From Candidatus Gastranaerophilales bacterium (lineage in GTDB: Bacteria; Cyanobacteriota; Vampirovibrionia; Gastranaerophilales; Gastranaerophilaceae), in contig CALUQY010000001.1 of the NCBI GenBank assembly GCA_944323035.1, forward strand, positions 3,131-67,130: DNA of 64,000 bases, written 5' to 3'. Of the stretch, positions 7,096-57,470 are shown one piece after another. The notes beneath the pieces are model-generated. The model saw nothing but the letters and a program-made list of their open reading frames with translations. It had not been told where the DNA came from and did no database searches. A program made the position numbers and the translations under genes. Each line of letters starts with the position of its first letter. Positions within the stretch are counted from its first letter, which is position 1.

Positions 7096-7426
7096 TCACG
7101 TCAACCCAGCTTTGAGTGAAGCTGAAGTTTTCACTTCTCACAGTCTTTTTCATCAAAACGGCATAGTTAACATTGATAAAGTTGACTTTTTCAAGCTTTT
7201 CAACGTTAAATTCAGCCATTCCGCAGTTTGTACAGTGTTTTTCGACAGGGACAATTTTGCCGTTCTTAATCATCGCCTTAACTTTTACCCCGCAGCAGGC
7301 GCAGCGCAAAATAAACCATTGGTTTTCAACTAACTCCCCGCAATCAGGGCAGTAAGCACAATCTACCTCCAGAGGAATTTTGCTGTGAGAACACTCTTTT
7401 TTAGTATATAAAAAATCGAACAACAT
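7052..7426 (-). CDS. Cys-rich zinc-ribbon hypothetical protein
   Basis: CAYCPDCG...CACCG...CTNCG pairs. Overlaps the spmB 3' end by ~44 nt in convergent orientation; the true start may be internal. Confidence 0.35.
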   Translation of the reverse strand: MLFDFLYTKKECSHSKIPLEVDCAYCPDCGELVENQWFILRCACCGVKVKAMIKNGKIVPVEKHCTNCGMAEFNVEKLEKVNFINVNYAVLMKKTVRSENFSFTQSWVDVTNAGTLCGKLGLLK

Positions 7427-7463
7427 ATTTTATATGTAACGATTATTTTATAAAAGTCAAAAG

Positions 7464-8642
7464 TTATCTTTTCACGCACATACTCCGCCCCGGGTGAGTT
7501 TTTAAAGCTTGTGCACAATTCCCTGTATGCAAAGCACAACGCCAACTCCTTGTAGGGTCGCCAATAACCATACTTGAAGAAAAAGCATCCGTCAACGTAA
7601 AATTAATCAAACTTCTGTTAACAAATAAAGATATTAATTCATCCCTGTTGGGCAATCGAACCTCTTCACTTTGCTCACGACAAAATCTGACATTTCCTTC
7701 ATAAACGACTGTAACATCCAGGACTTTATCTGTAGGAACCGGAGCAACAACAGAAGTATCTGTAGGCTGCAACGCAGTTATAAAGCCAATATCCTTACCG
7801 ACAGTATTAGGCCCTCTGCTTCCGTTTAAATCATAAACAAAATTCGCACATACAATTGCCTGTGAACGAAACTCCGATTCGTTATAAATAGATTTACATA
7901 ACGGATTATAATAAACCAAAACGCTTTCGCCATTAGCGGTTTCAAAGGCAGCTGCTTTTGTATTAAGCTGATGATAAGACCAACCGCCGGAATCGAAATC
8001 AAATCTTTCATTAAAATCTACAAGAGTTGTTATATCTTCCAACATAAGTGCAGAAGCTGTAGAGCCTTCGCCTATAAATGGCATTATCTTTTTGGGCAAG
8101 CCGCAATCCTCAAGGTGTTCATTATCACAAATATTGTTGATTTTAAGGACTTTTGCAAGCCCGTTTGTAACAAAAGTTTCAGCCGCTGTATCCTCAATTG
8201 AAGTAGAACCCGCGCTGTCTGTAGTTTCTCTTAATGTACCATAACCGTTCAAAGCAGGCATTAAAGCGATTGCCTGTGAAAATCTTGCATAAAGAGCTTT
8301 TCTTTGCGTGTTCCACGTGCGTTCGTTTATGTTTCCTGTAAGGCTTGGTAAGGTTATCGCCGCGACCACGCCGATTATTGTAAGGGATAACAGGATTTCC
8401 GCCATGGTGAAGGCACATTTCTTGACCGACAGCCTGTTGACCAAACATAGAACAGACTCAGTCGGTGTCATCGCGAGGGCGGAAGCCCGTGGCGATCCAG
8501 TCAAGCTCGTGGCGTCCTCAACTGGATTGCCACGCCGACTTCCGTCGGCTCGCAATGACATCGTGGTGCCCTCAACACCTAATCGGGCGGATAAGGCACG
8601 CCCCCCCCCCGTGTACAGGAATACTCTTCGATTGTTTTTCAT
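7464..8642 (-). CDS. Type IV pilin-like protein (prepilin-type N-terminal methylation domain), long leader, polyG in frame (ON)
   Basis: Class III signal ..KKCA|FTMAEILLSLTIIGVVAAITLPSL with E at +5. Conserved RBS (aaaggatgg) and ATG at 8642 give MKNNRRVFLYTGGGRA, read through the G10 tract in frame into the pilin. C-terminal ~270 aa are shared with three paralogs in this window. Confidence 0.7.
   Translation of the reverse strand: MKNNRRVFLYTGGGRALSARLGVEGTTMSLRADGSRRGNPVEDATSLTGSPRASALAMTPTESVLCLVNRLSVKKCAFTMAEILLSLTIIGVVAAITLPSLTGNINERTWNTQRKALYARFSQAIALMPALNGYGTLRETTDSAGSTSIEDTAAETFVTNGLAKVLKINNICDNEHLEDCGLPKKIMPFIGEGSTASALMLEDITTLVDFNERFDFDSGGWSYHQLNTKAAAFETANGESVLVYYNPLCKSIYNESEFRSQAIVCANFVYDLNGSRGPNTVGKDIGFITALQPTDTSVVAPVPTDKVLDVTVVYEGNVRFCREQSEEVRLPNRDELISLFVNRSLINFTLTDAFSSSMVIGDPTRSWRCALHTGNCAQALKTHPGRSMCVKR
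8601..8610 (-). repeat. Homopolymeric G10 tract (C10 on + strand) in the 5' coding leader of a pilin-like gene
   Basis: Counted directly: cccccccccc at 8601-8610, encoding GGG on the minus strand. Confidence 0.9.
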
Positions 8643-8689
8643 TTTTCCATCCTTTCTTTTATTGCGTTGGGCTGGAAAGCCCAACCTAC

Positions 8690-8890
8690 ATTCTAGTTAA
8701 TGAGTTAATCAGTTAATAAGTTAATTAGGGTTATAAAATGTTACCCGGGTTTATTCTCGTCAATTTCGGTCATATTCCTTATTAACTCTTTAACTTATTA
8801 ACTTTTCTCGGCCTTTCGTCCATTACGACTTATTGCCCTATTGCCCTATTGCCTTATTCATTATGTACCATGTTTTATAATTAGTCAAGA
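8690..8890 (-). promoter_or_regulatory. Conserved pilin-gene upstream module: sigma70-like promoter, 8-bp tandem arrays, hairpin ttgggctttccagcccaa
   Basis: cttgactaa..N..tacataat (TTGACT-N18-CATAAT read on minus) at ~8850-8885. ttattgcc 8-mers at 8830-8860. ttaatNag 8-mer arrays at 8705-8740 and inverted at 8795-8820. Hairpin at 8668-8690. The same layout recurs at 47760-47995 and 57200-57470. Confidence 0.55.
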
Positions 8891-8892
8891 GA

Positions 8893-8925
8893 TAAAAAAC
8901 GAGGCAGTTTAAACTGCCCCGTTTT
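8893..8925 (-). terminator. Rho-independent terminator of the pilC-containing operon
   Basis: On minus strand cggggcagtttaaactgcctcg followed by tttttt, immediately 3' of the pilC stop. Confidence 0.6.
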
Positions 8926-8927
8926 AA

Positions 8928-10148
8928 TTACTCTGACATATATGATGCGAACAACGGCATATAAAGTGCTAATGCCAGTACGCAGACAATCGCACCGATT
9001 ACAAGTAACATTATCGGCTCAATCATTTTGGTTAATGTTGAAATAATATCGTTCAATTTTTTATCAATATAGTTTGTACATTGACCGAGCATGTCGCCCA
9101 GACGACCTGATTGCTCACCAGTTGCTATCATAAACAAAATCATCTTCGGAACAATTCCGGTTGCTCTCAAGGCTACTGAAAGGTGCTGGCCTTTTGATAC
9201 GTTAATAATTGAGGATTCAAGCTGTTCTCTCATTACATCGTTTGTAATAGTCAAAATCGCAAGGTGCAAACATTCAACAATCGGAATCCCCGCATCATAC
9301 GCGACCTGCATAACCGCAATAAAGTTTGAGAAATCCCCAAATGAAAGCATTGTACCCATAACCGGAATTTTCAGCCCCAGCCCGTGGACAACTTTTCTTG
9401 AAGGCGCCCAGCGCATAATCGCCGTGGTCAAAGCACCAAATGCCAGGAACCCGATAGGAATACAAATCCAGTTAGCTTTCATAAACAAACCGGCTTCCAT
9501 CAACACTGCCGTAATCCAAGGTAATTCCTGCCCCATATTATCAAACATATCTTTAAATACAGGGAATACAAACAATAACATAACCAGAATAATTACAACA
9601 GACAAAACAAGTACGAATACCGGATACATCAATGTTCCGATAATTTGCCCCTTGATAGCAGCCTGTTTAGATAACAGTTCCAACAAACGATCCAGTGTTT
9701 TTTCAAGTTCCCCGGTATCTTCGCCGGCTTTACAAAGACCGATATAAATATGCCCGAATTGCAGCGGATATCTCGCAATAGTTCCGGAGAAAGTTCCACC
9801 GGCAATAATCTGTTTTCTTAATTCTTTTGCAACTTTTCTGAGTTTTGCCTTCGCCGCATCGTTTTCAATAAACATGAGGGATTCAATAATCGGAATACCC
9901 GCCTGAACAAGAATCTGCATGGTTGAAGTAAATTCTATTTTATCCTGCAGCCCAAGGTTAGGCAGCGGCGCTAAAGTAGCTTTTGCCTTGTTTTTAGCAG
10001 TAGTATCGCTTCTTTCATCAACAATACTAATCGGAGTATACCCAAGCCGTTTGATACCGGCTCTCGCCTCTGAAATATCAAGAGCTTCGATTTTTCCGTT
10101 TATTAAATCTTTATTATTTTTCAATGCGGTGTAGTTAAATATTGGCAT
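8928..10148 (-). CDS. pilC: Type IV pilus assembly / T2SS platform protein PilC/GspF
   Basis: 406 aa with two GspF-type domains, three TM segments, and typical length and architecture. Confidence 0.8.
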   Translation of the reverse strand: MPIFNYTALKNNKDLINGKIEALDISEARAGIKRLGYTPISIVDERSDTTAKNKAKATLAPLPNLGLQDKIEFTSTMQILVQAGIPIIESLMFIENDAAKAKLRKVAKELRKQIIAGGTFSGTIARYPLQFGHIYIGLCKAGEDTGELEKTLDRLLELLSKQAAIKGQIIGTLMYPVFVLVLSVVIILVMLLFVFPVFKDMFDNMGQELPWITAVLMEAGLFMKANWICIPIGFLAFGALTTAIMRWAPSRKVVHGLGLKIPVMGTMLSFGDFSNFIAVMQVAYDAGIPIVECLHLAILTITNDVMREQLESSIINVSKGQHLSVALRATGIVPKMILFMIATGEQSGRLGDMLGQCTNYIDKKLNDIISTLTKMIEPIMLLVIGAIVCVLALALYMPLFASYMSE

Positions 10149-19358: not shown

Positions 19359-20394
19359 TTATAAAATTCTCGCGCAAATTATTGTTAGATAATTTTCTAA
19401 GCTTTTCATAAAGCTTGATTTCATCATCCGATAAATACGCCGGAATTTCAATATGCACGGTTACAAAAATTTCGCAAATTTTACCCTGAATATTTTGCTG
19501 AATACGGAATTTCTGGCCGGATTTTGTTTTTGGAGGAATTTTTACGAGGATATTACCTTCAAGTGTTTTTAGGGAAACCGTTGTGCCAAGAACCGCTTCA
19601 TAGGGTTCAATAGGAACATTGTAGTGTACATTTTTACCCTCGTAACGGACATTGCGGCTGTTTTCAATTTTAATAATAAGGAATAAATCGCCGTTTTTAC
19701 CGCCATTTTTGCCGGTATTGCCCTCGCCTTTGATACGGAGTTTTGTTTCGTGCTTGATATTTGGCGGAATTTTAACGGTCAATTTGCGCTGTTTTGAAGT
19801 TTCACCGGTGCCGTTGCACTCTGTACAGTAGGAACCGTTAATAAACTTCCTGCCGCGGCATTTAGGGCACTGCTCGGTGTGAATAATATTTACAACTTTT
19901 GAAGTGCCGTTTTTTGCTTCCGATATATTAATACTAATGTCGGCAGTCAAATCCGAACCGTTTTGCGGCTCTTGCTTTTCGGATTTAGAAGAAAAGATTT
20001 CTTCAAAAAAGTTTTTTTCATCACGCGGCTTTTTAGCTTTTGGCGCATCATTTTTCGTTTCACGTTTTTGCTCTGATTTTGATGTTTTTGGCGGAGTTTC
20101 GCGTTTTGCTTCTTTTTTTTGCGCAGACGCTTGTGAAGTTTCTCTCTTTGGTTCTGTCTTTGGCTCTTGCGGCGGCGGCGCTTTGCGGTAAAAGCCGAAA
20201 AGCATATTGTATTGCATACGTTTGCGCTCATTGGAAAGCGTTTCGTAGGCTTCATTTATCTCTTTGAATTTATTAATATTACCTTCTGCCATATCCGGAT
20301 GATATTTGCGCGCGAGATTGCGGTATGCCGATTTAATTTCGCGCATATCACTATCGGGAGTAACACCAAGGGTTTCGTAATAATTATTCTTCAT
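19351..20394 (-). CDS. DnaJ-domain (J-protein) chaperone with zinc-finger-like CxxC pairs and KE-rich linker
   Basis: J-domain YYETLGVTPDSDMREIKSAYRNLARKYHPDM; CPKCRGRK...CTECNGTG; C-terminal DnaJ-C-like beta region. Confidence 0.7.
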   Translation of the reverse strand: MKNNYYETLGVTPDSDMREIKSAYRNLARKYHPDMAEGNINKFKEINEAYETLSNERKRMQYNMLFGFYRKAPPPQEPKTEPKRETSQASAQKKEAKRETPPKTSKSEQKRETKNDAPKAKKPRDEKNFFEEIFSSKSEKQEPQNGSDLTADISINISEAKNGTSKVVNIIHTEQCPKCRGRKFINGSYCTECNGTGETSKQRKLTVKIPPNIKHETKLRIKGEGNTGKNGGKNGDLFLIIKIENSRNVRYEGKNVHYNVPIEPYEAVLGTTVSLKTLEGNILVKIPPKTKSGQKFRIQQNIQGKICEIFVTVHIEIPAYLSDDEIKLYEKLRKLSNNNLRENFIND

Positions 20395-20429
20395 ACATAA
20401 ATATATAATTATGTATTCAAAAAAATCAA

Positions 20430-20965
20430 GCTGCCATGCGGCATAAGAAAACAGTTTTCTGCTGCTTCGTCCAGCGTCTTGCCCGAATTGGGCTTAACCG
20501 GATAACTTTTAAAATGTCATTCCGAATTGCGCGAGCGAGCAGTTCGGAATGACATGAGGGGGCGGCGTTGGTTGACTGGATTGCCGCGCGGTCTGCGACC
20601 GCTCGCAATGACAAATACTTTACGGACTTCACGCTTACTTTTCTCGTGGTACAGTCGCACGGGTAATAAAGCAGTTCTCCGCCGCACCGCCTCGCTGAAC
20701 GGCGAGCCGTTAGCGGCTGCGCTGTCTAATACGCCACTCAAAAGACTCGCTTGCGTGAGCGGGAGTTGCCCTGCAACTCATTCACGCCACGTTCCTTATC
20801 GCGAGTCTTTCTCGGACAAATATGACCGAATTGACGAGAAAAAAACCGGATAAAATCCCATAATCCTAATTAACTTATTAACTTATTAACTTTTGTCGTC
20901 CATTCGGCCATTACGACTTATTGCCTCATTGCCTTATTCACTTATTGCCTTCTTTATTATGTACG
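20430..20965 (-). repeat. Repeat-laden 5' leader: GC-rich hairpin modules plus TTAATAAG arrays and a pilin-type promoter upstream of the J-protein gene
   Basis: Hairpins gtcattccgaa..ttcggaatgac (20518-20555) and cattgcgagcggtcgcagaccgcgcggcaatcc. aataaagcagttctccgccgcaccgcctcgc..acgccactcaaaagactcg (20660-20760) is ~identical to 27098-27200. taattaacttattaacttattaac at 20868-20895. Promoter cttgattaaa..cgtacataat at 20935-20965 (minus). Confidence 0.55.
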
Positions 20966-20975
20966 ATTTTTCTCT

Positions 20976-21254
20976 TTAATCAAGCCCGTGCAGATATTCG
21001 TGTATATCCAGAACTTCATCAATCGTTATCGGTTCTGCCCCCTGAACAATTTCCAGCGGTTCGTGCGGCTGGCCGACGCCCTCGTGAACTTTTAAAATTC
21101 CAAGCCCGAAATCCTTACCGCATTTCGGACAGACCATTCTGACAACATTAGCACCTTTTTCCTTGCGGACAACCGTAAACGCATCACGGTCAATATCGTT
21201 CTTACAGTAGGAACAACACAAATTTGAAAATAATCGCTTAAACTTCTTTCCCAT
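20976..21254 (-). CDS. Hypothetical zinc-ribbon protein
   Basis: CCSYCKND...CPKCGKD. Confidence 0.3.
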   Translation of the reverse strand: MGKKFKRLFSNLCCSYCKNDIDRDAFTVVRKEKGANVVRMVCPKCGKDFGLGILKVHEGVGQPHEPLEIVQGAEPITIDEVLDIHEYLHGLD

Positions 21255-21390
21255 ACCAACATTCTATACTAAAAGTAAATTTATTAAAGCTGCCTATTCC
21301 ATTTTTACTTATTTTTTAATATAATATACATGTCCACACCTCTCTTATGGCGGGGTTCGGAATTAGTAAAAGGTAAGATGAGGGATAATA

Positions 21391-23298
21391 ATGAACAAAA
21401 ATCAATCAACAGGGATGTATATAATCTTAGGAATTCTCGTTATGGTCTTTGTTTCGTCCATTTTAATGGCGGGGCCGACAACCACAACAAAAGAACTCAC
21501 CTACTCTGCATTTCTGGAAAAACTCGCAAATAAAGAATTTAAATCAATTGAAAAAGCAGACGATTTTCTGATTGCAGTACCTGTTGAGCAGCCGCAGGCT
21601 GCAGAAACAGCTGAGCCGCAGACTCCGTCAAACGATATTCTTAATCCGTTTTTGACAACGACTCCGGAAAAACGCAAACCCCAATTAAGATATAAAGTTT
21701 TGACGCCCGATGATCCGACTTTGACTCAAAAAATTGAAGAAGCAGGCGTTGAATTCTCTGTGCTGAAACCAAGCGAATCCAGCCAGATTTTAAACCTCTT
21801 TGGTTCATTACTAATCCCGCTTTTATTCTTTATTTTTATACTTATTATGATAAAAAGCATTCAGGCTGGCGGTTCTCAAGCCATGTCGTTTGGCAAAAGC
21901 AAGGCTAAAATGCTTCTGGACAGCAAGGTTAAAACTACGTTCCAAAACGTTGCAGGCATTGACGAAGAGAAAAAAGAACTTGAAGAAATAGTTGATTTTC
22001 TCAAAAACGGTGCAAAATATATAAAACTCGGCGCAAAAATTCCGAAAGGCGTTTTGCTTGTAGGCCCTCCGGGTACAGGTAAAACATTAATGGCAAAAGC
22101 CGTTGCAGGCGAAGCCGGTGTTCCGTTCTTCTCAATAAGCGGCTCCGATTTCGTTGAAATGTTCGTCGGCGTTGGTGCAAGCCGGGTCCGCGACCTTTTT
22201 GAACAGGCTAAAAAACACCAGCCTTGCATTATATTCATAGATGAAATTGATGCTGTCGGACGTCAGCGCGGTGCAGGACTCGGCGGCGGGCACGATGAAC
22301 GCGAACAAACCCTTAACCAGTTACTCGTTGAAATGGACGGGTTTGATGAAACCACAAACATCATAGTTATCGCAGCAACAAACAGACCGGATATCTTAGA
22401 TAATGCACTTTTAAGACCGGGAAGATTTGACAGACAAATTTATATCAACGCGCCGGATGTTAAAGGCAGAGAACAAATTCTGAAAGTTCATGCTAAAAAC
22501 AAACAAATTTCACCGGAAGTTGATTTAAAAATTCTGGCAAAACGCACACCGGGCTTCACCGGCGCGGATTTGCAAAACCTGCTTAACGAAGCGGCTCTGC
22601 TTGCTGCAAGAAACAACAAAACTCAAATAGAAATGGAAGATATTGATGCTTCAATCGACAGGGTAATCGCAGGTATTGAAAAGAAAAGTAAAGTTATGAC
22701 AGAACAGGATAAAGAATTGACTTCATACCACGAAGTCGGCCACGCATTAATCGCGAAACTGGTCAAAGATTCTAACGAACTTCACAAAGTTTCAATTATT
22801 CCGCGCGGTTACGCATTAGGTATTACCTGGACGCGTCCGAAAGATGAAAAGGTTCACACAAGCAAAGCACAGCTTCTGGCTCAAATTACCGTGTCACTCG
22901 GCGGCCGCGCGGCAGAAGAAATAGTTTACGGTAAAGATAACGTCAGCACAGGCGCTTCACAGGATCTTTCGACTGTCACCAATCTTGCGCGCAAAATGGT
23001 TACTGCCTGGGGTATGTCCGATAAACTCGGCAATATGACTTACGGCAAAAATCAGGAAAATGTCTTTATGGGCCGCGACTTTGGGCATCAGAGAGATTAC
23101 TCTGAACAGGTCGCCTACGAAATTGACGAAGAAATTAAACATATTATTGATGAAAGATACAACCTCGCAAAACAACTTCTAACCGAAAACCGCGATATGT
23201 TAGAAGAAATCTCCAAAGAACTTCTTGAAAAAGAAACGATTGACGAGAAAGAATTTGATGAAATTATGAAAAGAGTCGAAGAACAACGAAATGCATAA
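21391..23298 (+). CDS. ftsH: ATP-dependent zinc metalloprotease FtsH
   Basis: N-terminal TM segments; AAA Walker A GPPGTGKT, Walker [12 protein letters not shown]; zinc site HEVGHAL. Confidence 0.95.
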
Positions 23299-23299
23299 A

Positions 23300-23336
23300 A
23301 AAGAAAGGCGCCGGCAATGCCGGCGCCTTTCTTTTT
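23300..23336. terminator. Bidirectional rho-independent terminator
   Basis: aaaggcgccggcaatgccggcgccttt flanked by A- and T-runs, between convergent ftsH and the Gly-rich ORF. Confidence 0.7.
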
Positions 23337-23356
23337 TATATAATGTTTCCTTTATT

Positions 23357-23917
23357 TTACTTATTTGCGTGGCATTTATCCCACTCGTTGTTTTCACTCC
23401 ATTTGTGACCTGTGAACCAGTTAGCAAAGCCCTTGCCAATATATGCGAAGGTATTACCAATCTGTTTACCGGTCCAGGATAAACCTTTCCAGATAGCTTT
23501 TCCGGCCGGTTTAAGTACGCTATTCCAAGTCCAGGTTGCAGCAGGCTTAATTGCTTTATTCCACGTCCACGACGCGGCTTTACCAATACCACGGAAAATC
23601 GGCCCGCCGAGAGGGCTTGCGAGTAAGCCGATGCCTGCACCTATACCGAGTGCCCACCAGGCGCCTTTGGAGCTAATTCCACCGCCGCCGCAGCATCCGC
23701 CGCCATAGTAACCGCCGTAATAAGGAGCACCGAAAATTCCGCCGCTATGACAGCCGCCCCCGTAATTATAATTTTTTACGGAGATAAAGGTATTTGATTT
23801 TACGCCGCCGCCTGTTCCTGCCCAGTAAGCTCTGTTGCCGCTGTACGAGCCTGAAACATAAGCGCTTCCGAATGGCGATCTCGCACCGGAACTACGGAAT
23901 ATGAAACTGCCGCCCAT
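23357..23917 (-). CDS. Glycine/tryptophan-rich repeat protein (hypothetical)
   Basis: YYGGYYGGGCCGGGGISS and tandem K(A/P)A.TWTWN / WTGKQ repeats; no signal peptide evident. Confidence 0.4.
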   Translation of the reverse strand: MGGSFIFRSSGARSPFGSAYVSGSYSGNRAYWAGTGGGVKSNTFISVKNYNYGGGCHSGGIFGAPYYGGYYGGGCCGGGGISSKGAWWALGIGAGIGLLASPLGGPIFRGIGKAASWTWNKAIKPAATWTWNSVLKPAGKAIWKGLSWTGKQIGNTFAYIGKGFANWFTGHKWSENNEWDKCHANK

Positions 23918-24011
23918 AACTTATACCTCTCTTGTAGTACTCTCTATGTATATATAAAGTATATAAGATAAGAATTATTGCTTTTTTCGGGTCGTGAAAG
24001 TTTACATTTCG

Positions 24012-24818
24012 TTACAAAAGCGTCTTAAATGCCCGAGGCAGGTAGTTTATAAGGTCATTTGGCAGAACGCAATACGCAGTCAAATCTTCACGTGCAATAT
24101 CCCCTGCAAGTCCGTGAAGATATACACCAAGCGCCGCGGCTTCAAACGGCTCCATTTTCTGAGCAAGAAAAGAGGTTATAATTCCGGCAAGGACATCACC
24201 GCTTCCGGCCTTTGCCATTGCGGAATTGCCGGTATTGTTAATATAAACTTCCCCGTAAGGCGAAGTCACGACAGTATTATGAATTTTCAATACAGTTACA
24301 CAGTTATAGCGCTGCGATATTTCACCTGCAAAGTGAACTGTATCGTTCAGAATTTTATCAACATCAACGCCGCCGAGAAGTCTTGAAGCTTCAAGCGGAT
24401 GCGGGGTCAGAATAAGTCTTTCCGGAAGCCACTCCGTCCCGTATTGGGATAAAATATTTAACCCGTCCGCATCTATAACCGTTGGGATTTCCGTATGCGT
24501 ATCAAATGTTCGTTTGAAAATTTCCGTGGCACGCAGGTCTGTGCCAAGCCCGCAGCCGATTAACAAAGCCTGTGAGTTTTTCAAATGTTCGGCAATTGAA
24601 GCGGTATGTGCAAAAACAATAGCAGAGGTCTGCCACGAACCGCAATTCATAACGCTTTCATCCGTTGCAAGGAATACATAGCCGCAGCCGGATTTTAATG
24701 CCGCCATAGATGAAATTAGTGCGGCACCCGGCATATATTTAGAGCCGGAAATATTCAAAACTTTACCAAAAGTGCCTTTGTGCGAAATTTCCCCGCGCGG
24801 CGGAAGTTTAAAGTCCAT
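24012..24818 (-). CDS. nnrD: ADP-dependent NAD(P)H-hydrate dehydratase (YjeF C-terminal domain)
   Basis: GTFGKVLNISGS...GCGLGTD...KAGSGDVLAGII motifs. Start probably at the internal MDFKL, which leaves a small overlap with trmL. Confidence 0.8.
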   Translation of the reverse strand: MDFKLPPRGEISHKGTFGKVLNISGSKYMPGAALISSMAALKSGCGYVFLATDESVMNCGSWQTSAIVFAHTASIAEHLKNSQALLIGCGLGTDLRATEIFKRTFDTHTEIPTVIDADGLNILSQYGTEWLPERLILTPHPLEASRLLGGVDVDKILNDTVHFAGEISQRYNCVTVLKIHNTVVTSPYGEVYINNTGNSAMAKAGSGDVLAGIITSFLAQKMEPFEAAALGVYLHGLAGDIAREDLTAYCVLPNDLINYLPRAFKTLL

Positions 24819-25269
24819 TTTGTCTAATCGCCTCATACGCAACAATCGCAACGGAATTGGAAAGATTTAAGCTTCTTTGCCCCTCAATCATCGGGATTGT
24901 AAGCGCATTTTTATCAGTAACATATTTTTCAGGAAGCCCTCTTGATTCCGGCCCGAAAACAATAAAATCACCCTCCTGAAATTTGACATCAGTATATTTT
25001 CGTTTTGTCTTGGTTGTCAGATAATAAAAGTTAGCACCTTTATTTGCCACAAACAATTCGTCCATAGAATTAATCCTGTGAAGGTCAACGCTCTGCCAGT
25101 AATCCATACCGGCGCGTTTCGTGTATTTATCGGTAAGTGCAAAGCCTAATTTTCCGACAAGATAAAGGCTTGAGCCGGTACAAGCGCAAAGACGCGCAAT
25201 ATTTCCGGTATTTTGCGGGATTTCAGGTTCATACAGAACAATGTTTAACTTACTCATTTTTCCATTCAT
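24808..25269 (-). CDS. trmL: tRNA (cytidine/uridine-2'-O)-methyltransferase TrmL (SpoU family)
   Basis: LNIVLYEPEIPQNTGNIARLCACTGSSLYLV....IVFGPESRGLP. Confidence 0.8.
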   Translation of the reverse strand: MNGKMSKLNIVLYEPEIPQNTGNIARLCACTGSSLYLVGKLGFALTDKYTKRAGMDYWQSVDLHRINSMDELFVANKGANFYYLTTKTKRKYTDVKFQEGDFIVFGPESRGLPEKYVTDKNALTIPMIEGQRSLNLSNSVAIVAYEAIRQNGL

Positions 25270-25303
25270 CCAACGTCAGCCTTATACTTTTAACGTATTA
25301 CAT

Positions 25304-25897
25304 TTACCCTTTGCCTTCACTCAGAACAGATTTAGCTTCTATCACAACAGGCAGCCCGCGCACGACACAGAACACAATCGCAATAACCGCAAGCCAGTAG
25401 CCGACTTCAAAGACGATATCTGCGTGCGGAAGCCCCGGAATTTTAGAGGCAACAATTACAATAAATGCAACGACTTTTGCAACCGCATAGCTTATTCTCA
25501 TAAATCTGGAGCCGGTAATAAATTTACAAACCGGATTTTGCTGCATTCCGAACGGCGTAAAACCTTTTTCCATAGCAGCGCTTCTGATAGTGTCTGTGAT
25601 AAATCCCCTTGTAATCGCAATGAGCGGGAACAAAATCGACAACCAACCCTGAACAGCAAAGAGAATCCAGTAAGTGTTTTCAACTATTCTATCGCTCATA
25701 ATATCTAAAAGCGCGCCGAGTTTTGATTCTTCATGGAATTTTCTAGCGACCCAGCCGTCAACTCCGTCAAGAGCAAACGCCAGAATTGTCAGGACAAGCG
25801 CCCAAACGTATGCGGCAACGCTCTGCGGCAGCGCTATAATCAAATACACCGCGATAAACATTAAAAATACTCTGAAAATTGTTATAAAATTTGCCAT
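25304..25897 (-). CDS. CDP-alcohol phosphatidyltransferase family protein
   Basis: DGVDGWVARKF...SKLGALLDIMSDR (D-G-x2-A-R...G-x3-D-x3-D). Confidence 0.75.
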   Translation of the reverse strand: MANFITIFRVFLMFIAVYLIIALPQSVAAYVWALVLTILAFALDGVDGWVARKFHEESKLGALLDIMSDRIVENTYWILFAVQGWLSILFPLIAITRGFITDTIRSAAMEKGFTPFGMQQNPVCKFITGSRFMRISYAVAKVVAFIVIVASKIPGLPHADIVFEVGYWLAVIAIVFCVVRGLPVVIEAKSVLSEGKG

Positions 25898-25950
25898 TCT
25901 GCCTCTTTCCTTTTATTCCGGCGGTGCAAACCGCCATTGATGCAATACAT

Positions 25951-26952: not shown

Positions 26953-27029
26953 ATCTTCTTCCTTATTACAAATATTCCCTGACAGTATTATATTACAAAA
27001 AGGGATTTGGGCAAGGGTTTGCAAAAAGT

Positions 27030-27275
27030 TAATGAGTTAATAGGTTAATGAGGAATATGACCAAATGGATAAATAGTAGAATTAAGATTATTTCCTAATA
27101 AAGCAGTTCTCCGCCGCTCCGCCTCGCTGAACCGCGAGCCGTGGCGGCTTCGCTGTCTAATACGCCACTCAAAAGGCTCGCTCACGTTCCTTATCGCGAG
27201 CCTTTCTCGGACAATAATCCTAATTAACAGCAGCCGCAGGCTGCGATTAACTTATTAACTTATTAACTATTTTAA
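27030..27275. mobile_element. MITE-like element: inverted TTAATNAG octamer arrays flanking a GC-rich hairpin core
   Basis: gttaatgagttaataggttaatgagg (27030-27055) and the inverted cgattaacttattaacttattaac (27250-27275) bracket a core (27090-27235) that is ~identical to 20660-20800. Confidence 0.5.
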
Positions 27276-28225: not shown

Positions 28226-28244
28226 ATAGTCTACTATCTCCTGT

Positions 28245-46408: not shown

Positions 46409-47747
46409 TTAACGTTCAACACATCGGGAACTATATCTATTATTCCTTGAAACCAACATTCTGGCTCCTGAAGAGATATTTTGAGCCCAAGCCTTTGTAC
46501 CGGAAGTCGTATACCCCAAAGAAGATGTCCAAATTGAGCCATTACCGGTTCCGATAAAATGATCACGACTTTGCATTCTTTTATTAACAAAAATGGCTCC
46601 TGCTTCTTCTGTTGTTGGAAGTCTATACTTATTATCCTGTGCAGTACAATATTTAGCGGCATCAATCCAGCCGTTTTCATGAACAGCATTTTCACGTTTT
46701 ACATAAGGTGCTGCCAAAACGCTATCCGTTGGATAAAAAGCGGTCATAAAACCTATATCTTTACCAACAGTATTCGGCCCTTTAAGTCCATTAAGATCAT
46801 ATACAAAATTTGCGCAAACCATTGTCTGTATTGGCACATGAGCTTCAGAAGATTTTAAATCTGCAACGCAGTTTTTATTATAATAAACAGCAATACTTTC
46901 ACCGTTAGCAGTTTCAAACGCAACAGCTTTACTCCGTATAGCGCTATAAGAATACGTAGAGTCATAACTTGAGCTTGCCAGAACCATCTGTGTATTTAAA
47001 GCAGCCATTGTTGTGGGGAAATTAAAATCTGCTTCACCAGAAAGGCGTGTTATTGTTTTAGGTAAACCGCAATCTTTAAAATGTTCATTGTCACAGATAT
47101 TATTAATTTTTAAGACTTTAGCCAGTCCTGCAGTGACGAAAGTTTCAGCAGCTGTATCCGCCGTGACACTGCCGGAATCATCTTCCGCTAGTGTACCATA
47201 ACCATTAAGATTAGGCATTAAGGCAATTGCCTGACTCATTCTGGCATAGAGGGCTTTTCGCTGCGTGTTCCATGTGCGCTCGTTAATGTTTCCCGTAAGG
47301 CTCGGTAAGGTTATCGCCGCCACCACACCTATTATCGTGAGGGATAAGAGTATCTCCGCCATAGTAAAAGCTAATCGCGCCAACCGCCCCACGTCATTGC
47401 GAGCGACCACCGGGAGCGTGGCAATCCACCGGCGGTCAAGCCGGCTTCCTAATTGGTTGGGCGTTAAAAAGTCATGTTCTACCAGTTGTGGATGCCACTC
47501 AGCGGTCGGTTCAGCCGGTGTCATCCCGAATTTATTTCGGGATCTGTCCGGCGACACTGATAGCCCGCATCGCTGGCCAGATGCTGAAACGAGTTCAGCA
47601 TGACAGTTTTGTTTCACATTCTCGCTTTGTGCCTCTGTTCGCTCGCGCTGTTCGCAATGACAATTATAGGCTTTCGACTCGCCAATAGTGCCTGTTAAGA
47701 GAGGCCCCCCCCCCCCCTGCATTAATGCTTACTCTTCGGTTTTTCAT
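46409..47747 (-). CDS. Type IV pilin-like paralog, polyG OUT of frame (phase OFF) relative to conserved start
   Basis: Conserved RBS + ATG at 47747 gives MKNRRVSINAGGGG.. and terminates after 27 codons with G13. Pilin frame 46409-47722 contains ..LARLA|FTMAEILLSLTIIGVVAAITLPSL. G12 or G15 would fuse the two frames. Confidence 0.65.
47705..47717 (-). repeat. Homopolymeric G13 tract (C13 on +)
   Basis: Counted 6c + 7c at 47705-47717. Confidence 0.9.
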
Positions 47748-47759
47748 TCTTTCCATCCT

Positions 47760-47995
47760 TTCTTTTGTTGCGTTGGGCTGGAAAGCCCAAACTACTGGAA
47801 TAAGGCAATAGGTCATTAAGGCATTAAGGCAATATGACCTTTATATTATTTTCTGCCATTTCGGTCATATTCCTTATTAACTTTTTAACCTATTAACTTA
47901 TTAACTTTTCTCGTCCATTTGACCATATTGCCTTATTCTCTTATTGCCTTCTTCATTATGTACAATGTTTTCTATTTAGTCAAGCCTACAGGCTG
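47760..47995 (-). promoter_or_regulatory. Pilin upstream module (hairpin, 8-mer arrays in inverted pairs, TTGACT-N18-CATAAT promoter)
   Basis: ttgggctggaaagcccaa at 47771-47790. Arrays ggcaataggtcattaaggcattaaggcaatatgacc and the inverted ccttattaac..ttattaac. Promoter cttgactaaatagaaaacattgtacataat (minus) at 47955-47990. Confidence 0.55.
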
Positions 47996-51793: not shown

Positions 51794-53030
51794 TTAATTA
51801 CGCTTGACGCATTTGACCCTTTTGGCTTCTGTTTCATCTATAGGTTCAAGAAATATTCTTCCGGTTGTGCCGCTCATATTCCATGCTTTAGTTGAATCAT
51901 AGCGGCTGGATGACCAATAGTGTAGACTTGCAATATTAAGCAATTTGCTATTATAAAACATAGAAATAACTTCACCTATGTTTGGCACACGGTATTCTGC
52001 ATCCAAAGCCGTACAGGCCTTGGGTGCCTCATTAAAGTCAACTTCAACGCCCGCATTCCGAGGATACAGCATCGGGGCGACAACAAGGCTGTCTGACGGA
52101 TACAACACCGTCATTACACCGATGTCTTTACCAACAGCATTCGGACCTTTGCTGCCGTTTAGGTCATACACAAAGTTCGCACAAACCTTGCTCGCACCAT
52201 AGTAATCTGTTTCCTGCATATCTGCCCTGCAAGTTGGATTATAGAAGGCGAGAATACTTTCGCCATTCTGGGTTTCAAAAGCAGCGGCTTCGCTATCTAC
52301 ATTACTATAAGAATAGTCTATTGGTGTTGAAGCAGTAGTATCGGTAAATGACATACTTGTGTTTTTAGGGTTCAATTCACTGACGAGTTTTGGCATTGAC
52401 GTTGTACTGCCAGCGTTATCCGTAATCTGTTTTGAGGTTATTCCGCAATCTTCAAGGTGGTCTTTGTCGCAGATATTATTAATTTTCAAAACCTTAGAAA
52501 GCCCGGCCGTTACAAAAGTTTCGGCATCGGAATAGCCGTTCATTGAATCCATTAACGAAACTGCCTGTGAAAACCTTGCATATAGCGCTTTTCTTTGCGT
52601 ATTCCACGTTCGTTCATTAATGTTTCCTGTAAGTGACGGAAGCGTTATCGCTGCGACTACGCCGATAATTGTTAGGGATAACAGTATCTCAGCCATGGTA
52701 AACGCTGACCGTAAGCTGACCAGACCATTGTGGAACCGGCTCAGCCGGGCTGCCATCGTGAATGCGCAACGTTGGTTCTCCCGCCTGTCAAATTCTACGC
52801 AACGATTATCAATCGTTGCAGAATTTGTCCGCTCCTTACACTCGCGCTCCAGTCGCAACGGCGGCATCGTCCAGTTGCGCGCCCTGCCCGTTTCGCTCGC
52901 GCGAACCGGCGCCGGCTCTCCGCCCTTCGCTGTAGCTTTCACGCCGTCCGTGAGCACGGATTGCTTAGATAGAACCGGCTCAGCCGGCCCCCCCCCCCCC
53001 TGCATAAGTAATTACACTTCGGTTTTTCAT
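51794..53030 (-). CDS. Type IV pilin-like paralog, polyG OUT of frame (phase OFF)
   Basis: ATG at 53030 gives MKNRSVITYAGGGGAG*. Pilin frame 51794-53005 contains ..LRSA|FTMAEILLSL. C-terminal ~240 aa are identical to the 56046-57149 paralog. Confidence 0.65.
52988..53000 (-). repeat. Homopolymeric G13 tract (C13 on +)
   Basis: Counted ccc + 10c at 52988-53000. Confidence 0.9.
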
Positions 53031-53116
53031 AAGTTTTTCTATCCTTTCTGGCTTCTCGCCATTATCTAATTGTGCATATCGCAATACGACACATTGTTAT
53101 TATGTACTATTTTTTT

Positions 53117-56045: not shown

Positions 56046-57149
56046 TTAACGCTTAACGCATTTAACCATTTTCCATCCGGTTGAGCTAATTGGCTCAATA
56101 AATATTCTTCCTGTTGTTCCGCTCATATTCCAGGCTTTAGTTGAATCATAGCGGCTGGATGACCAATAGTGCCTATTTGCAATATTAAGCAATTTGCTAT
56201 TATAAAACATAGAAATAACTTCACCTATGTTTGGCACACGGTATTCTGCATCCAAAGCCGTACAGGCCTTGGGTGCCTCATTAAAGTCAACTTCAACGCC
56301 CGCATTCCGAGGATACAGCATCGGGGCGACAACAAGGCTGTCTGACGGATACAACACCGTCATTACACCGATGTCTTTACCAACAGCATTCGGACCTTTG
56401 CTGCCGTTTAGGTCATACACAAAGTTCGCACAAACCTTGCTCGCACCATAGTAATCTGTTTCCTGCATATCTGCCCTGCAAGTTGGATTATAGAAGGCGA
56501 GAATACTTTCGCCATTCTGGGTTTCAAAAGCAGCGGCTTCGCTATCTACATTACTATAAGAATAGTCTATTGGTGTTGAAGCAGTAGTATCGGTAAATGA
56601 CATACTTGTGTTTTTAGGGTTCAATTCACTGACGAGTTTTGGCATTGACGTTGTACTGCCAGCGTTATCCGTAATCTGTTTTGAGGTTATTCCGCAATCT
56701 TCAAGGTGGTCTTTGTCGCAGATATTATTAATTTTCAAAACCTTAGAAAGCCCGGCCGTTACAAAAGTTTCGGCATCGGAATAGCCGTTCATTGAATCCA
56801 TTAACGAAACTGCCTGTGAAAACCTTGCATAAAGCGCTTTTCTTTGCGTGTTCCATGTTCGCTCGTTGATGTTACCGGTAAGGCTCGGTAATGTTATCGC
56901 TGCCACCACGCCGATTATCGTCAGGGATAATAATATCTCTGCCATTGTGAACGCTGCGTTTTTCGTCATCCCGAATTTAGTTCGGGATCTGTCCAACGTT
57001 ACCGGTAGCTCGCTTTGCTGGACAGACCCTGAATCAAGTTCAGGGTGACAATAAAATTTTACGTTGTCCGTGAGCACGCTTTCCGATTGTAGAACCGGCT
57101 CAGCCGGCCCCCCCCCCCCCGTGCAAATACTTACACTCTGTTTTTTCAT
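56046..57149 (-). CDS. Type IV pilin-like paralog, polyG in frame (ON)
   Basis: MKKQSVSICTGGGGPAEP... runs through G13 in frame to ..MTKNAA|FTMAEILLSL; an alternative short leader MTKNAA is also available. Shares its 3' ~720 bp with the 51794 paralog. Confidence 0.7.
   Translation of the reverse strand: MKKQSVSICTGGGGPAEPVLQSESVLTDNVKFYCHPELDSGSVQQSELPVTLDRSRTKFGMTKNAAFTMAEILLSLTIIGVVAAITLPSLTGNINERTWNTQRKALYARFSQAVSLMDSMNGYSDAETFVTAGLSKVLKINNICDKDHLEDCGITSKQITDNAGSTTSMPKLVSELNPKNTSMSFTDTTASTPIDYSYSNVDSEAAAFETQNGESILAFYNPTCRADMQETDYYGASKVCANFVYDLNGSKGPNAVGKDIGVMTVLYPSDSLVVAPMLYPRNAGVEVDFNEAPKACTALDAEYRVPNIGEVISMFYNSKLLNIANRHYWSSSRYDSTKAWNMSGTTGRIFIEPISSTGWKMVKCVKR
57108..57120 (-). repeat. 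Homopolymeric G13 tract (C13 on +)
   Basis: Counted ccc + 10c at 57108-57120. Confidence 0.9.
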
Positions 57150-57199
57150 TTCTTCTATCCTTTCTGGCTTCTCGCCATTGTCTAATTATGATACCGGCT

Positions 57200-57470
57200 T
57201 GACCGCCGGTCCTTTCTTTGTTTTGCGTTGGGCTGGCAAGCCCAAACCTACTGGTCTAAGGCAATAGGTCAATAGGGCATCATGGCAATAGGACTATTTC
57301 TTTTTTCCATTCGGTCATTACGACTCATTGCCTTATTTTCTTATTGCCTTCCTTATTATGTACCATATTTCAATTTTAGTCAAGACCGATAGCAAGGGTC
57401 TAATTAGGAGGCCGCCTTGACCGGCGGTTATGTACCATGTTTTCAATTTAGTCAAGTTATGATATAACAA
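57200..57470 (-). promoter_or_regulatory. Pilin upstream module with tandemly duplicated promoter unit
   Basis: Hairpin ttgggctggcaagcccaa at 57222-57240; 8-mer arrays; two copies of cttgactaaa..ggtacataa at ~57350-57385 and 57440-57470. Confidence 0.5.

Follow-up and report, generated by a model that had tools for sequence, protein, structure and literature searches.

Why should a pilin gene set its start codon 60 to 125 codons ahead of the site at which its prepilin is cut? The question is raised by four type IV pilin paralogs, c1 to c4, on the minus strand of a 64,000-nucleotide stretch of Candidatus Gastranaerophilales DNA (contig CALUQY010000001.1, positions 3,131 to 67,130; hereafter the window). 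As the first-pass annotation of this DNA had described, all four encode the cleavage site A|FTMAE with Glu at +5, the first Phe codons lying at 8411, 47368, 52702 and 56951. The sequence A|FTMAEILLSLTIIGVVAAITLPSLT is unchanged in 4 of 4 window copies, in 78 of 78 related loci (one of them with a single conservative substitution) and in 45 of 45 aligned proteins. Upstream of each cleavage site lies a polyG tract, G10 in c1 (8601-8610) and G13 in c2 (47705-47717), c3 (52988-53000) and c4 (57108-57120). The distance from tract to Phe codon is 189 nt in c1, 336 nt in c2, 285 nt in c3 and 156 nt in c4, in every case a multiple of three. All four genes are complete, with ORFs exceeding 300 codons, and the leaders comprise 77 (c1), 118 (c2, counted from an ATG abutting the tract), 101 (c3, counted likewise) and 66 (c4) aa, in agreement with the gap before the cleavage site that had been reported.

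In no copy does the spacer between tract and cleavage site contain a stop codon in the pilin frame, whereas each of the two remaining sense frames has 3-8. When dinucleotides are shuffled, the joint probability that all four are open is 1.1e-5, a figure that leaves out the multiple-of-3 lengths; the earlier judgement that such openness is unlikely to arise by chance is upheld. The GC content of the spacers is 50-61%, against 39.8% across the window, and they are made of GC-rich modules shared with intergenic DNA, as had been claimed, with matches in six intergenic regions at ~3.0-3.4, 20.6, 28.25-28.37, 30.0-30.4, 45.05 and 61.15 kb. The modules include hairpin units of the form NNNN-GAA-loop-TTC-NNNN, of which 26 of 28 are perfectly complementary, with 5 stem variants, which points to compensatory changes that preserve the hairpin. 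Hairpin modules occur in the leaders in both orientations, and an A+B module has TGTCAT...ATGACA ends (seen by eye). Translational bypassing and an intron-like element were also considered; the open frame makes both unnecessary.

The spacers are under selection for frame and against stop codons well beyond the window. Among 65 polyG pilin loci of Candidatus Gastranaerophilales, 61 have a spacer that is a multiple of three and stop-free in the pilin frame only, and 2787 spacer codons contain 0 stops in that frame against 187 and 140 in the other two. The other frames were used as the control because copies outside leaders are too few: with the leaders masked in the loci, a BLAST search using the spacers as queries returned 11 non-leader copies that were 40 nt or longer, and 3 of these contained stops. 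Spacers reach 414 nt in related loci. The basal plan is a promoter, Shine-Dalgarno (SD) sequence, ATG, ~10 codons, polyG tract, 3-11 codons and [A/G]|FTMAEILL. Basal family members have leaders of ~20 aa, about one third of the polyG loci have spacers of 9-45 nt without repeats, and paralogs that lack polyG begin MKNFSA|F and MKRA|F. At one short-spacer locus (L016) the leader reads MKRNNVLTCAGGGGTAEQA|FTMAE, with promoter and SD directly upstream of its ATG; leaders as short as this leave no other start possible. Together with the 2787 stop-free codons, these short-spacer loci support initiation upstream of the polyG followed by read-through of the repeats in the pilin frame, which is the core common to both readings of the earlier annotation.

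The same data bear on the possibility that the long N-terminal extension is an artefact of gene calling, with translation beginning at an internal ATG, GTG or TTG just before A|F, so that the repeats and the polyG would belong to a 5' untranslated region (5'UTR). In-frame candidates of this kind are found near the cleavage site in three copies (TTG at -11 in c1, GTG at -8 in c2, ATG at -6 in c4), and gene callers have sometimes taken such starts, as in MTPTESVLCLVNRLSVKKCA|F. However, c3 has no near-site start, all of the internal candidates lack an SD whereas the upstream ATG is preceded by AAAGGATGGA, and the alternative start is entirely absent from the short-spacer loci. An untranslated region would leave both the 2787 stop-free codons and the multiple-of-3 rule unexplained. 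Moreover, the one promoter-like match inside the c1 leader (8444-8471), a weak one, would begin transcription downstream of the candidate TTG. We give this explanation very little credence.

The full arrangement can be followed on the minus strand at c1, which directly follows pilC (T2SSF), pilB (T2SSE) and a secretin gene and is the sole window copy beside pilus machinery genes. A promoter-like site, TTGACT-N17-CATAAT (8860..8888; -35 at 8883-8888, -10 at 8860-8865), is located directly downstream of the pilC terminator (8896-8925); it has 10 of 12 consensus matches and is the best site in 7300-9000. It is followed by an optional 5'UTR insert (8696..8858) composed of a GGCAATAG 8-mer array (8829-8858) and TTAATAAG 8-mer arrays, the latter forming an inverted pair (8777-8802 and 8696-8730) that flanks a spacer of ~46 nt. 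The predicted fold of the c1 5'UTR is a long hairpin (z = -3.7). Next come a small hairpin, TTGGGCTTTCCAGCCCAA (8667-8684), the SD (8646-8655) and the SD-linked ATG (8640-8642), which opens the N-terminal peptide MKNNRRVFLYT (8611..8642; family pattern MK[NK]xxVxIx[AT]). The polyG tract (8601..8610, G10 as assembled) is in frame and codes for the Gly run of the leader. The repeat-built part of the leader (8412..8600) has 63 codons with Ala at -1, a GC content of 58% and no stops in the pilin frame (3 in each of the other two), and it contains a large palindrome, gtcattgcgag...ctcgcgatgac (8467-8559). The mature pilin, F1-T-M-A-E5 (7464..8411 including the stop codon), has a hydrophobic alpha1N helix, and its C-terminal domain is C-type-lectin-like.

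The remaining copies, also on the minus strand, vary this arrangement. In c2 (5' region 47369..47983) the promoter (47955-47983) is followed by an array insert (47791-47954), a hairpin (47773-47790), an SD (47752-47761) and, after the tract, a repeat leader of 112 codons (47369-47704; hairpin A 47578-47605, hairpin B 47519-47548); the mature pilin (46409..47368) has an Lcl_C domain. The 5' region of c3 (52703..53104) has its -10 element at 53099-53104 and its SD at 53038-53047, with neither 8-mer arrays nor a hairpin insert; its repeat leader of 95 codons (52703-52987) holds a duplicated AFTMAA pseudo-site (52748-52765) and precedes a mature pilin at 51794..52702. In c4 (5' region 56952..57383) a promoter (57355-57383), a GGCAATAA-type array insert with a hairpin (57228-57245) and an SD (57154-57163) precede a repeat leader of 52 codons (56952-57107; hairpin A 57023-57050, hairpin B 56965-56993) and the mature pilin (56046..56951).

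Most related loci have a similar TTGAC-N17-19-(tA)CATAAT site, ~80 nt before the tract. The TTGACT/CATAAT promoter described earlier is present, with a spacer of 17 nt rather than 18, and the small hairpin and ribosome-binding site expected upstream were both found, as detailed above for c1. The claim that each gene carries the same ordered upstream module did not hold, since the module differs by copy: c3 lacks the 8-mer arrays and hairpin, c4 holds GGCAATAA-type arrays only, and c1 is without the right-hand GGCAATAA array. The 8-mer-array insert occurs in ~10 of 65 related loci, and copies of the module are found at non-pilin sites (20851-20990, 27028-27271 and 50150-50172). The module is optional and not pilin-specific; the 5'UTR probably serves as a second landing pad for repeats. 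The idea that the arrays flank an invertible promoter as its inverted repeats was considered and rejected: the promoter lies outside the repeats, the centres of c1 and c2 differ, and they contain no convincing internal promoter. Rfam 15 covariance models gave no match at the gathering score across the whole window. At E of 1 or less, the sole match in 8380-8930 was to the pilC terminator, below threshold, and 20300-30600 yielded nothing relevant; the Rfam matches at 23.2-23.4 kb correspond to a bidirectional terminator. No tRNA or tmRNA was found in the window.

What, then, does the polyG tract do? An SD-linked ATG was identified at 64 of 65 polyG loci, and the tract (G10-G16, mode 13) is placed 27-53 nt after it, exceeding the ~8 residues from which a homopolymer may slip. 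Of 60 loci, 12 have this ATG in the pilin frame (ON) and 48 do not (~80% OFF); in a HiFi genome, by our own count, the two frames agree at 1 of 24 polyG loci. In the window as sequenced c1 and c4 are ON, with the tract read through, and c2 and c3 are OFF. The conserved ATG start proposed earlier therefore stands for c1 and c4 (57147-57149), where the SD-linked MK ATG is in the pilin frame, and fails for c2 (47745-47747) and c3 (53028-53030), where the frame of the MK ATG ends after 27 and 16 codons, respectively. The sole in-frame ATG in these two copies is a second one touching the tract (47720-47722 in c2, 53003-53005 in c3), where ATGCA-G13 gives MQGGGG. A working start at this tract-abutting ATG (xATGCA-Gn) would leave two of the three phases ON; in our own tabulation tract lengths do not differ between loci with and without it, G12 and G13 predominating in both, and the comparison gives no support for its being functional.

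Tract length is polymorphic at a single locus. Contigs L080 (G12, in frame) and L081 (G13, out of frame), from two samples, show 0 mismatches over the remaining 2354 nt, two more allele pairs have identical mature sequences called with MK... or MQGGGG starts, and a contig nearly identical to c1 (L079) differs from it only around the polyG tract. The tract lengths are those of the assembly consensus, L079 having G-rich miscalls beside the tract, and because assemblies are unreliable in homopolymer length, a technical origin is conceivable for any single ON/OFF call as well as for the G12/G13 difference. The allele comparison is based on ENA contigs reached through proteins; among JGI contigs, a search for tract variants of the c2 locus with the pattern GCATTAATGCA-N8-22-CCTCTCTTAACAGGCAC gave 0 matches.

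As the comparative data indicate that the spacers are read from the upstream start, expression would depend on tract length. Each gene has a putative sigma-70-type promoter of its own, a strong SD, an ATG, ~10 codons and a G10-G16 tract within the sequence coding for the prepilin leader. Slipped-strand changes in tract length would then decide whether the pilin is in frame with the SD-linked start, which amounts to translational phase variation; since the tract belongs to the leader, which is removed from the precursor, its length would leave the mature pilin unaffected. Both initiation at the SD-linked ATG and reversible, high-frequency switching are what we infer from this arrangement. The data fit polyG phase variation of a large pilin family, in addition to what the first-pass annotation had read in them. 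At least 28 pilin paralogs are present in one closed 2.02-Mb genome (OZ007029.1), and it is likely, in our assessment, that Candidatus Gastranaerophilales (gut Melainabacteria) possess a large, modular, polyG phase-variable family of type IV pilins with leaders lengthened by in-frame repeats. The remaining three polyG tracts of the window lie inside AlgX-like O-acetyltransferase paralogs beside an MBOAT, which are typical contingency genes.

The ~80% of copies that are out of frame could also be taken as silent or semi-silent donor cassettes, comparable to Neisseria pilS, that feed gene conversion into c1 beside pilBCQ, with the polyG and repeats initiating recombination at the DNA level. The 5' region is indeed invariant and the 3' region variable, only c1 adjoins pilus machinery genes, and a G-rich element upstream of pilE is required for gonococcal antigenic variation (PMC3547852). 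Nevertheless, most copies, including all four here, have their own promoter-like site, the SD-linked ATG is almost universal at polyG loci (64/65), and the window copies are all complete ORFs of more than 300 codons. Silent cassettes have no need of spacers that are stop-free in the pilin frame. ON copies occur at several separate loci (e.g., L010, L011, L016, L017, L034 and c4) and polyG tracts are also found within unrelated surface-modification genes. A donor role for most copies is therefore highly unlikely.

The window proteins show a leader ending in Gly or Ala, Phe1, Glu5 and ~20 hydrophobic residues, as expected of type IV pilins; they depart from the short leader of a class III signal peptide, being 66-118 aa long in this part. 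Leaders in characterised type IV pilin systems are of ~5-30 aa. We found no description of a prepilin leader of comparable length in the literature and, to our knowledge, leaders of 60-226 residues exceed every characterised prepilin leader, by a factor of up to about ten. In the 118 homologs, with starts as called, leader length has a median of 75 aa and a maximum of 226 aa, and the -1 residue is Ala in 98 and Gly in 19. The leaders are net positive in 86% of cases, their last 8 residues are never net negative, and a TM-like window occurs in 2 of the 118. These properties agree with cytoplasmic retention and cleavage, the charge pattern being weak evidence because GC-rich sequence gives Arg-rich, positive peptides by composition. 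Prepilin leaders are known to end in Gly or Ala and to remain cytoplasmic, the peptidase cutting at the cytoplasmic face (PMC10191384), and pilD has been reported from a Gastranaerophilus genome (PMC5877343). The long leader is probably removed by a prepilin peptidase at the cytoplasmic face of the membrane; within the window, no prepilin peptidase gene or motif and no additional pilin-like N-termini were found. Predicted leader-derived tryptic peptides include ADGSR and GNPVEDATSLTGSPR.

The Pfam N_methyl family (PF07963) scored 17.4 bits for c1 and 18.6 bits for c4 against a gathering cut-off of 21.2, and no match was reported for c2 and c3. Where type IV pilins have a lollipop fold, a long N-terminal helix bearing a globular head, AlphaFold2 (AF2) placed helices at residues 80-90 and 107-127 of c1, with pLDDT below 50 up to residue 101 and a confident head at 150-392. 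Over the c1 leader pLDDT is 27-34, and the leader is therefore predicted to be disordered. Foldseek matched the C-type-lectin-like C-terminal domain only, which resembles the C-terminal domain of Lcl.

How the leaders became so long may be explained by insertion. The stretch between tract and cleavage site, 3-11 codons in basal copies, would act as a landing pad for REP/MITE-like, GC-rich palindromes, of which only multiple-of-3, stop-free insertions would persist. The outcome would be leaders of 60-226 aa, hydrophilic, mostly positive and predicted to be disordered, in which the terminal [A/G]|FTMAE is retained. We take the inserts to be neutral, that is, tolerated and probably without function. 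Spacers of at least 60 nt occur in 42 of 61 loci, and GC-rich segments in ~8 of 36 intergenic regions; the repeats are ~3 times commoner in leaders, an excess that pure neutral tolerance does not predict.

This excess is one reason to ask whether the repeat leader is adaptive. Its hairpins might form a translation-gated insulator that masks internal starts and, when the gene is OFF, exposes naked RNA to decay or Rho, and/or the repeats might be portable homology blocks that shuffle the promoter-polyG cassette. The c1 leader RNA is much more structured than shuffles (z = -5.0), whereas the whole c2 leader RNA shows no excess structure (z = -1.1), and no minus-strand terminator was found inside the c1 leader. 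Paralogs that are only 49% identical in their variable part nevertheless share the last 45 leader and first 60 mature residues at 100% identity, and a module with a duplicated FTMA junction recurs; gene conversion of the 5' cassette alone, however, would spread one tolerated insertion to many paralogs. The position of the one near-site in-frame ATG of c4, at the foot of hairpin B, also speaks for an adaptive leader. Against this, the third or so of polyG loci with 9-45-nt spacers do without repeats, and ordinary intergenic DNA holds the leader modules too. On balance an adaptive leader is improbable. The combined form, in which the leader is a selected device that insulates and silences each of at least 28 lectin-tipped pilin genes until ribosomes pass the polyG and also supplies homology blocks, is likewise unlikely; were it correct, the prepilin peptidase and the membrane-targeting route would routinely handle cytoplasmic leaders of 60-226 residues.

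Neutral insertion downstream of a switch would combine features known from separate systems. In the opa and pilC genes of Neisseria the hypermutable repeat (CTCTT units and polyG, respectively) falls within the coding sequence of the leader that is later removed; the reading frame therefore sets expression, the mature protein is unchanged, and most copies are OFF at any moment. These genes also resemble the present ones in forming a multigene family of surface adhesins with a promoter for each copy, 11 phase-variable opa genes being present in one gonococcal strain (PMC11868660). Here, in contrast, it is the type IV pilin itself that is switched, and it carries a class III signal peptide, a type cleaved at the cytoplasmic side. 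The family, with at least 28 copies in a 2-Mb genome, is larger, its host is a Melainabacterium not yet cultured, and the leader is expanded downstream of the tract by up to ~400 nt of palindromic repeats.

Such inserts recall the Rickettsia palindromic elements (RPEs), small palindromic repeats that are found in frame in coding genes, stop-free and translated (PMC10969869). Intragenic MITEs (ERIC, BOX and cyanobacterial MITEs) share with RPEs and with the spacers described here the condition of in-frame, stop-free, translated palindromic inserts. RPEs, however, sit in the mature parts of unrelated housekeeping proteins, whereas the present inserts are concentrated in the prepilin leader of one family, with several modules stacked per gene in both orientations. 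Type IVb and Streptococcus sanguinis T4aP leaders are of ~15-30 residues, whereas those of the window have 66-118 and those of related genes up to 226 as called. Both groups otherwise share a hydrophilic leader ending in Gly or Ala, a hydrophobic helix and Glu5 (PMC10191384), and the type IVb and S. sanguinis leaders have been termed "much longer" or "very long", with no lengths given (PMC10191384). S. sanguinis PilB is a modular type IV pilin with a grafted C-terminal adhesive domain (PMC8179133). The pilins studied here share this plan of a pilin module with a grafted adhesive domain, but the domain is a different, C-type-lectin-like one and the pilins belong to a large phase-variable paralog family. 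While opa/pilC-type switches and in-frame RPEs are known, the combination of both in a class III signal peptide is new.

These genes point to a large, previously undescribed phase-variable set in an uncultured, widespread gut lineage of non-photosynthetic cyanobacteria. In it, polyG tracts seem to gate dozens of lectin-tipped type IV pilins one by one, which, by analogy with Neisseria or Campylobacter, suggests host-driven adhesin variation, driven for example by IgA. The family raises the question of the maximum leader length at which a class III signal peptide is still targeted and cleaved. It is also a natural experiment in the placement of selfish palindromic repeats within genes, here in a segment that is translated and then discarded. 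At a practical level, the pilin loci break short-read assemblies and mislead gene callers, and annotations of the family in public databases are inconsistent because one and the same allele may be given an MK..., an MQGGGG or an internal-Met start.

The interval 7464-8890 holds a single minus-strand gene, c1, with the sequence upstream of it, and c1 comes immediately after pilC (T2SSF), pilB (T2SSE), and a secretin gene. Its open reading frame translates as MKNNRRVFLYTGGGRALS...KKCA|FTMAEILLSLTIIGVVAAITLPSLT..., where the bar marks the cleavage site. Three further paralogs with the same invariant mature N-terminus lie on the minus strand at 47368 (c2), 52702 (c3), and 56951 (c4). Upstream of the cleavage site is a homopolymer, G10 in c1 (8601-8610) and G13 in c2 (47705-47717), c3 (52988-53000), and c4 (57108-57120). 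The spacers, from tract to cleavage site, have a GC content of 50 to 61%, versus 39.8% for the window.

The first-pass annotation held that the leader DNA is built from modules of intergenic repeats, and that an open frame in all four spacers is unlikely by chance; both points are upheld. One leader module recurs in intergenic DNA at 28260-28370 (tgtcatgctgaa...ttcagcatctg ... gatcccgaaacaaattcgggatgaca) and a second at ∼20590 (gtcattgcgagcggtcgc...ggcaatccagtc). The spacers of c1 to c4 measure 189, 336, 285, and 156 nt, each a multiple of 3, and contain no stop in the pilin frame versus 3 to 8 in each other sense frame. In dinucleotide-preserving shuffles the pilin frame was open in 12%, 1.3%, 5.8%, and 11% of cases, respectively (joint P = 1.1e-5). 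Related sequences decide the matter. A protein search found 2419 relatives, and the best 120, inspected for N-terminal extensions, are mostly called with extensions that open with MK..[AT]GGGG or MQGGGG, after which the same peptide modules follow. A genome scan gave 78 loci, titled Candidatus Gastranaerophilales, Melainabacteria, or MAG labelled “Fusobacterium sp.”, a label taken to be a misassignment judging from the pilin family; the closed 2.02-Mb HiFi genome OZ007029.1 has at least 28 pilin genes (our count from the locus table). The four window copies and 61 of the 78 scanned loci form a set of 65 polyG-bearing loci, 61 of which have a stop-free spacer whose length is divisible by 3. These 61 spacers comprise 2787 codons with no stop in the pilin frame, versus 187 and 140 stops in the other two frames, which is the mark of translated sequence.

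Leaders are of the ordinary short kind in paralogs without polyG (MKNFSA|F, MKRA|F, MYMKKTKSAA|F). The commonest design has TTGAC(a/t)-N17-19-(tA)CATAAT ∼80 nt before the tract, followed by an SD (AAAGGATGGA), ATG, ∼10 codons, G12-13, 3 to 11 codons, and [A/G]|FTMAE, as in locus L016 (MKRNNVLTCAGGGGTAEQA|F). In short-spacer loci such as this one the SD-linked ATG is the sole start codon, so the polyG must be translated and contributes a run of Gly to the leader. The long leaders of the window are this design with 150 to 340 nt inserted between tract and cleavage site, and initiation there probably also occurs at the SD-linked ATG. For translation to start internally and leave the polyG untranslated, the frame statistics and the short-spacer loci would both have to mislead, and the internal candidates lack an SD; we give this possibility hardly any credence.

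The repeat modules are used in both orientations (CHAELVSAS... and its reverse complement, ...QTLNQVQGD). Of 28 NNNN-GAA-loop-TTC-NNNN hairpin units in the leaders, with five stems, 26 are perfectly complementary, which indicates that the hairpin, not the peptide, is the conserved entity. As RNA, the c1 leader folds far better than its shuffles (z = −5.0); the c2 leader, folded as a whole, did not (z = −1.1). The c1 structure would suit repeats retained as an adaptive hairpin insulator or recombination hub, as would the finding that 42/61 leader spacers are at least 60 nt long, versus ∼8/36 intergenic regions with GC-rich segments. We consider such a role unlikely, and the inserts are presumably neutral.

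Among 118 homologs, with leaders as called, leader length has a median of 75 aa and a maximum of 226 aa. The −1 residue is Ala in 98 and Gly in 19, net charge is positive in 86%, no leader has a net negative charge over its last eight residues, and only 2 leaders contain a TM-like hydrophobic window. AlphaFold2 gave a pLDDT of 27 to 34 over residues 1 to 77 of c1 and predicted the globular part with confidence. These properties fit class III signal peptides, whose hydrophilic leader ends in Gly/Ala, is held in the cytoplasm, and is cut at the cytoplasmic face (PMC10191384); the long leaders would likewise be cleaved.

The upstream region was described in the first-pass annotation as a TTGACT-N18-CATAAT promoter followed by the same ordered module in each gene. 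c1 does have the promoter-like site, which follows the pilC terminator; no other site in the region matches better, and its spacer is N17, not N18. In c1, c2, and c4 the −10 box is separated from the SD by 160 to 240 nt of tandem 8-mers (GGCAATAA type and TTAATAAG type) in inverted arrays plus a hairpin, TTGGGCTTTCCAGCCCAA; as RNA these stretches form long hairpins (z = −3.7 and −4.3). The common module did not hold, since c3 has no 8-mer insert and the TTAATAAG arrays are missing from c4. The insert is carried by only ∼10 of the 65 related loci, and these arrays also lie beside or ahead of unrelated elements at 20.8 and 27 kb. The 8-mer module is an optional interspersed palindromic 5′UTR insert and not a pilin-specific regulator. 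The promoter box occurs twice in c4, as ggtaCATAAC and ggtaCATAAT, 72 nt apart (57400-57456 and 57355-57384), with a hairpin (ccgccggtcaaggcgg) and a ctaattagac motif in between. A related hairpin plus ATAATTAGAYAATGGC module lies just upstream of the SD in c3, c4, L007, L011, L017, and L036.

The SD-linked ATG is in the pilin frame in 12/60 scorable loci. It reads through into the pilin in c1 and c4; in c2 and c3 reading from it ends after 27 and 16 codons, and the single in-frame ATG is a second one abutting the tract (ATGCA-G13; 47720-47722 and 53003-53005, minus strand), which has no SD of its own. In OZ007029.1 we counted 1 in-frame locus among 24 polyG pilin loci, against ∼8 given random phases (binomial P ∼8e-4, our calculation), a hint that one or few pilins are expressed at a time in this genome, unless homopolymer calling is biased. 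Two contigs from different samples, L080 and L081, agree at every position over 605 + 1749 nt; the sole difference is G12 (in frame) versus G13. Two more allele pairs with identical mature sequences are called with alternative starts. Another contig, L079, is identical to c1 over ∼550 nt apart from the surroundings of the tract, which show a longer G run and G-rich miscalls (L079:1500-1560). The tract is therefore variable and hard to sequence, and individual ON/OFF calls are to be read with caution. Were the copies pilS-like silent cassettes, one would hardly expect promoters, SD sequences, and complete ORFs of their own, nor leaders free of stops; we regard this reading as very unlikely.

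An ATG lies no more than 8 nt upstream of the tract in 23/65 polyG loci, often abutting it as (A/T)ATGCA-Gn. Such an abutting ATG is shifted by +1 against the frame of the SD-linked ATG, hence in frame when the tract is G13, and gene callers start at it (MQGGGG) with no SD there. Among the 65 loci, tract-length distributions did not differ between those with and without a near-tract ATG. Public protein sets assign different starts to the same alleles. Many short-read contigs end 30 to 300 nt upstream of FTMAE (L002, L005, L023, L025, L026, L030, L039, L041, L042, L050, L051, L073, and L074), which indicates that assemblies break at polyG and repeat leaders.

The C-terminal ∼110 residues of c1 (7464-7800) match C-type-lectin-like folds in structure comparison, among them the Legionella Lcl C-terminal domain (8q4e, TM 0.61), and Pfam Lcl_C matches c2, c3, and c4 with sub-threshold scores. 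The pilins are bimodular, with a predicted C-type-lectin-like C-terminus, which implies that an adhesive domain has been grafted onto a pilin; modular pilins of this kind are described for Streptococcus sanguinis (PMC8179133). Two homologous proteins, P0003 and P0006, are 100% identical to c1 over the last 45 leader and first 60 mature residues and 49% over the remainder, so that the 5′ cassette has been homogenised or exchanged among paralogs with diverged adhesive parts. In a recurrent module, ...AFTMAARLSRFHNGLV(G/S)LRSA|FTMAE, found in c3, the cleavage junction is doubled. The first of the two sites, AFTMA(A/G)..., lies at 52748-52765 (minus strand) in c3, and the doubling is also found in L001, L038, L053, P0021, P0048, P0073, P0086, P0099, and others. 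The real A|FTMAE follows 14 to 20 residues after the first site, which lacks Glu5, and a small hairpin repeat (ccggctgagccgg or ggcgccggtcaaggcgcc) separates the two; the arrangement resembles a recombination scar or the outcome of a repeat inserting into the junction.

We consider it probable that a large family of lectin-tipped type IV pilins undergoes translational phase variation gated by polyG, with leader and 5′UTR acting as landing pads for REP/MITE-like palindromes. On this account the tract sits in the disposable leader, and of the palindromes that land only those in frame and stop-free survive. The sequences themselves show the architecture, the selection on reading frame, the tract polymorphism, the coexistence of ON and OFF copies, and the repeat origin of the inserts; switching dynamics, initiation site, cleavage of long leaders, and insert neutrality are inferred. 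In Neisseria opa and pilC the repeat lies within the signal-peptide-coding region, and the pilin switch would work like these. The opa family is covered in PMC11868660. For the in-frame palindromes the parallel is with intragenic MITEs, Rickettsia palindromic elements (RPEs) among them (PMC10969869). In full-text literature searches, no paper was found that describes polyG tracts, long leaders, or a multigene family of pilins in Melainabacteria/Gastranaerophilales; one genome paper gives just a list of genes, pilA, pilB, pilC, pilT, and pilD (PMC5877343). The individual mechanisms are established, and what is new is their combination in a class III signal peptide, the leader lengths, and the lineage.

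The three remaining polyG tracts of the window lie inside paralogous AlgX-like SGNH/DHHW acyltransferase ORFs, namely G14 at 36178-36191 (ORF 34930-36309), G13 at 39049-39061 (ORF 37718-39442), and G13 at 40864-40876 (ORF 39533-41257), adjoined by an MBOAT gene (36315-37718). Homopolymers in other bacteria switch surface-modification genes of this sort, and the tracts suggest that surface polymer O-acylation may be phase variable. The last two ORFs are a tandem duplication of 574 codons each, with 94% identity in a sampled 300-nt segment and identical surroundings of both tracts. After the 36178 tract comes cgtgccttacccgc, resembling what follows the c1 tract, and the tract may travel together with a flanking module.

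A GC-rich, apparently structured interspersed element occurs on the minus strand at 20664-20822, 27096-27213, and 29945-30385, and also at L015:5780-5797 and L019:5884-5901. Conserved are its 5′ end (ATTGTCCGAGAAAG(A/G)CTCGCG), an interior motif (CGAG(T/C)CTTTTGAGTGGC), and its 3′ end (GCGAGGCGGxGCGGCGGAGAACTGCTTTATTA). The interior varies among copies, with ∼300 nt extra in the one at 30 kb. In the 27-kb copy, which lies between inverted TTAATAAG arrays, one pair of the stem GAAAGACTCG/CGAGTCTTT shows a compensatory change from A-T to G-C; the promoter and 8-mer-array module of the pilins also precedes the 20.8-kb copy. The element had no Rfam match, and unrelated genes (DnaJ, GFO/IDH/MocA oxidoreductase) lie downstream of its copies. 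It is a candidate ncRNA or mobile-element cargo.
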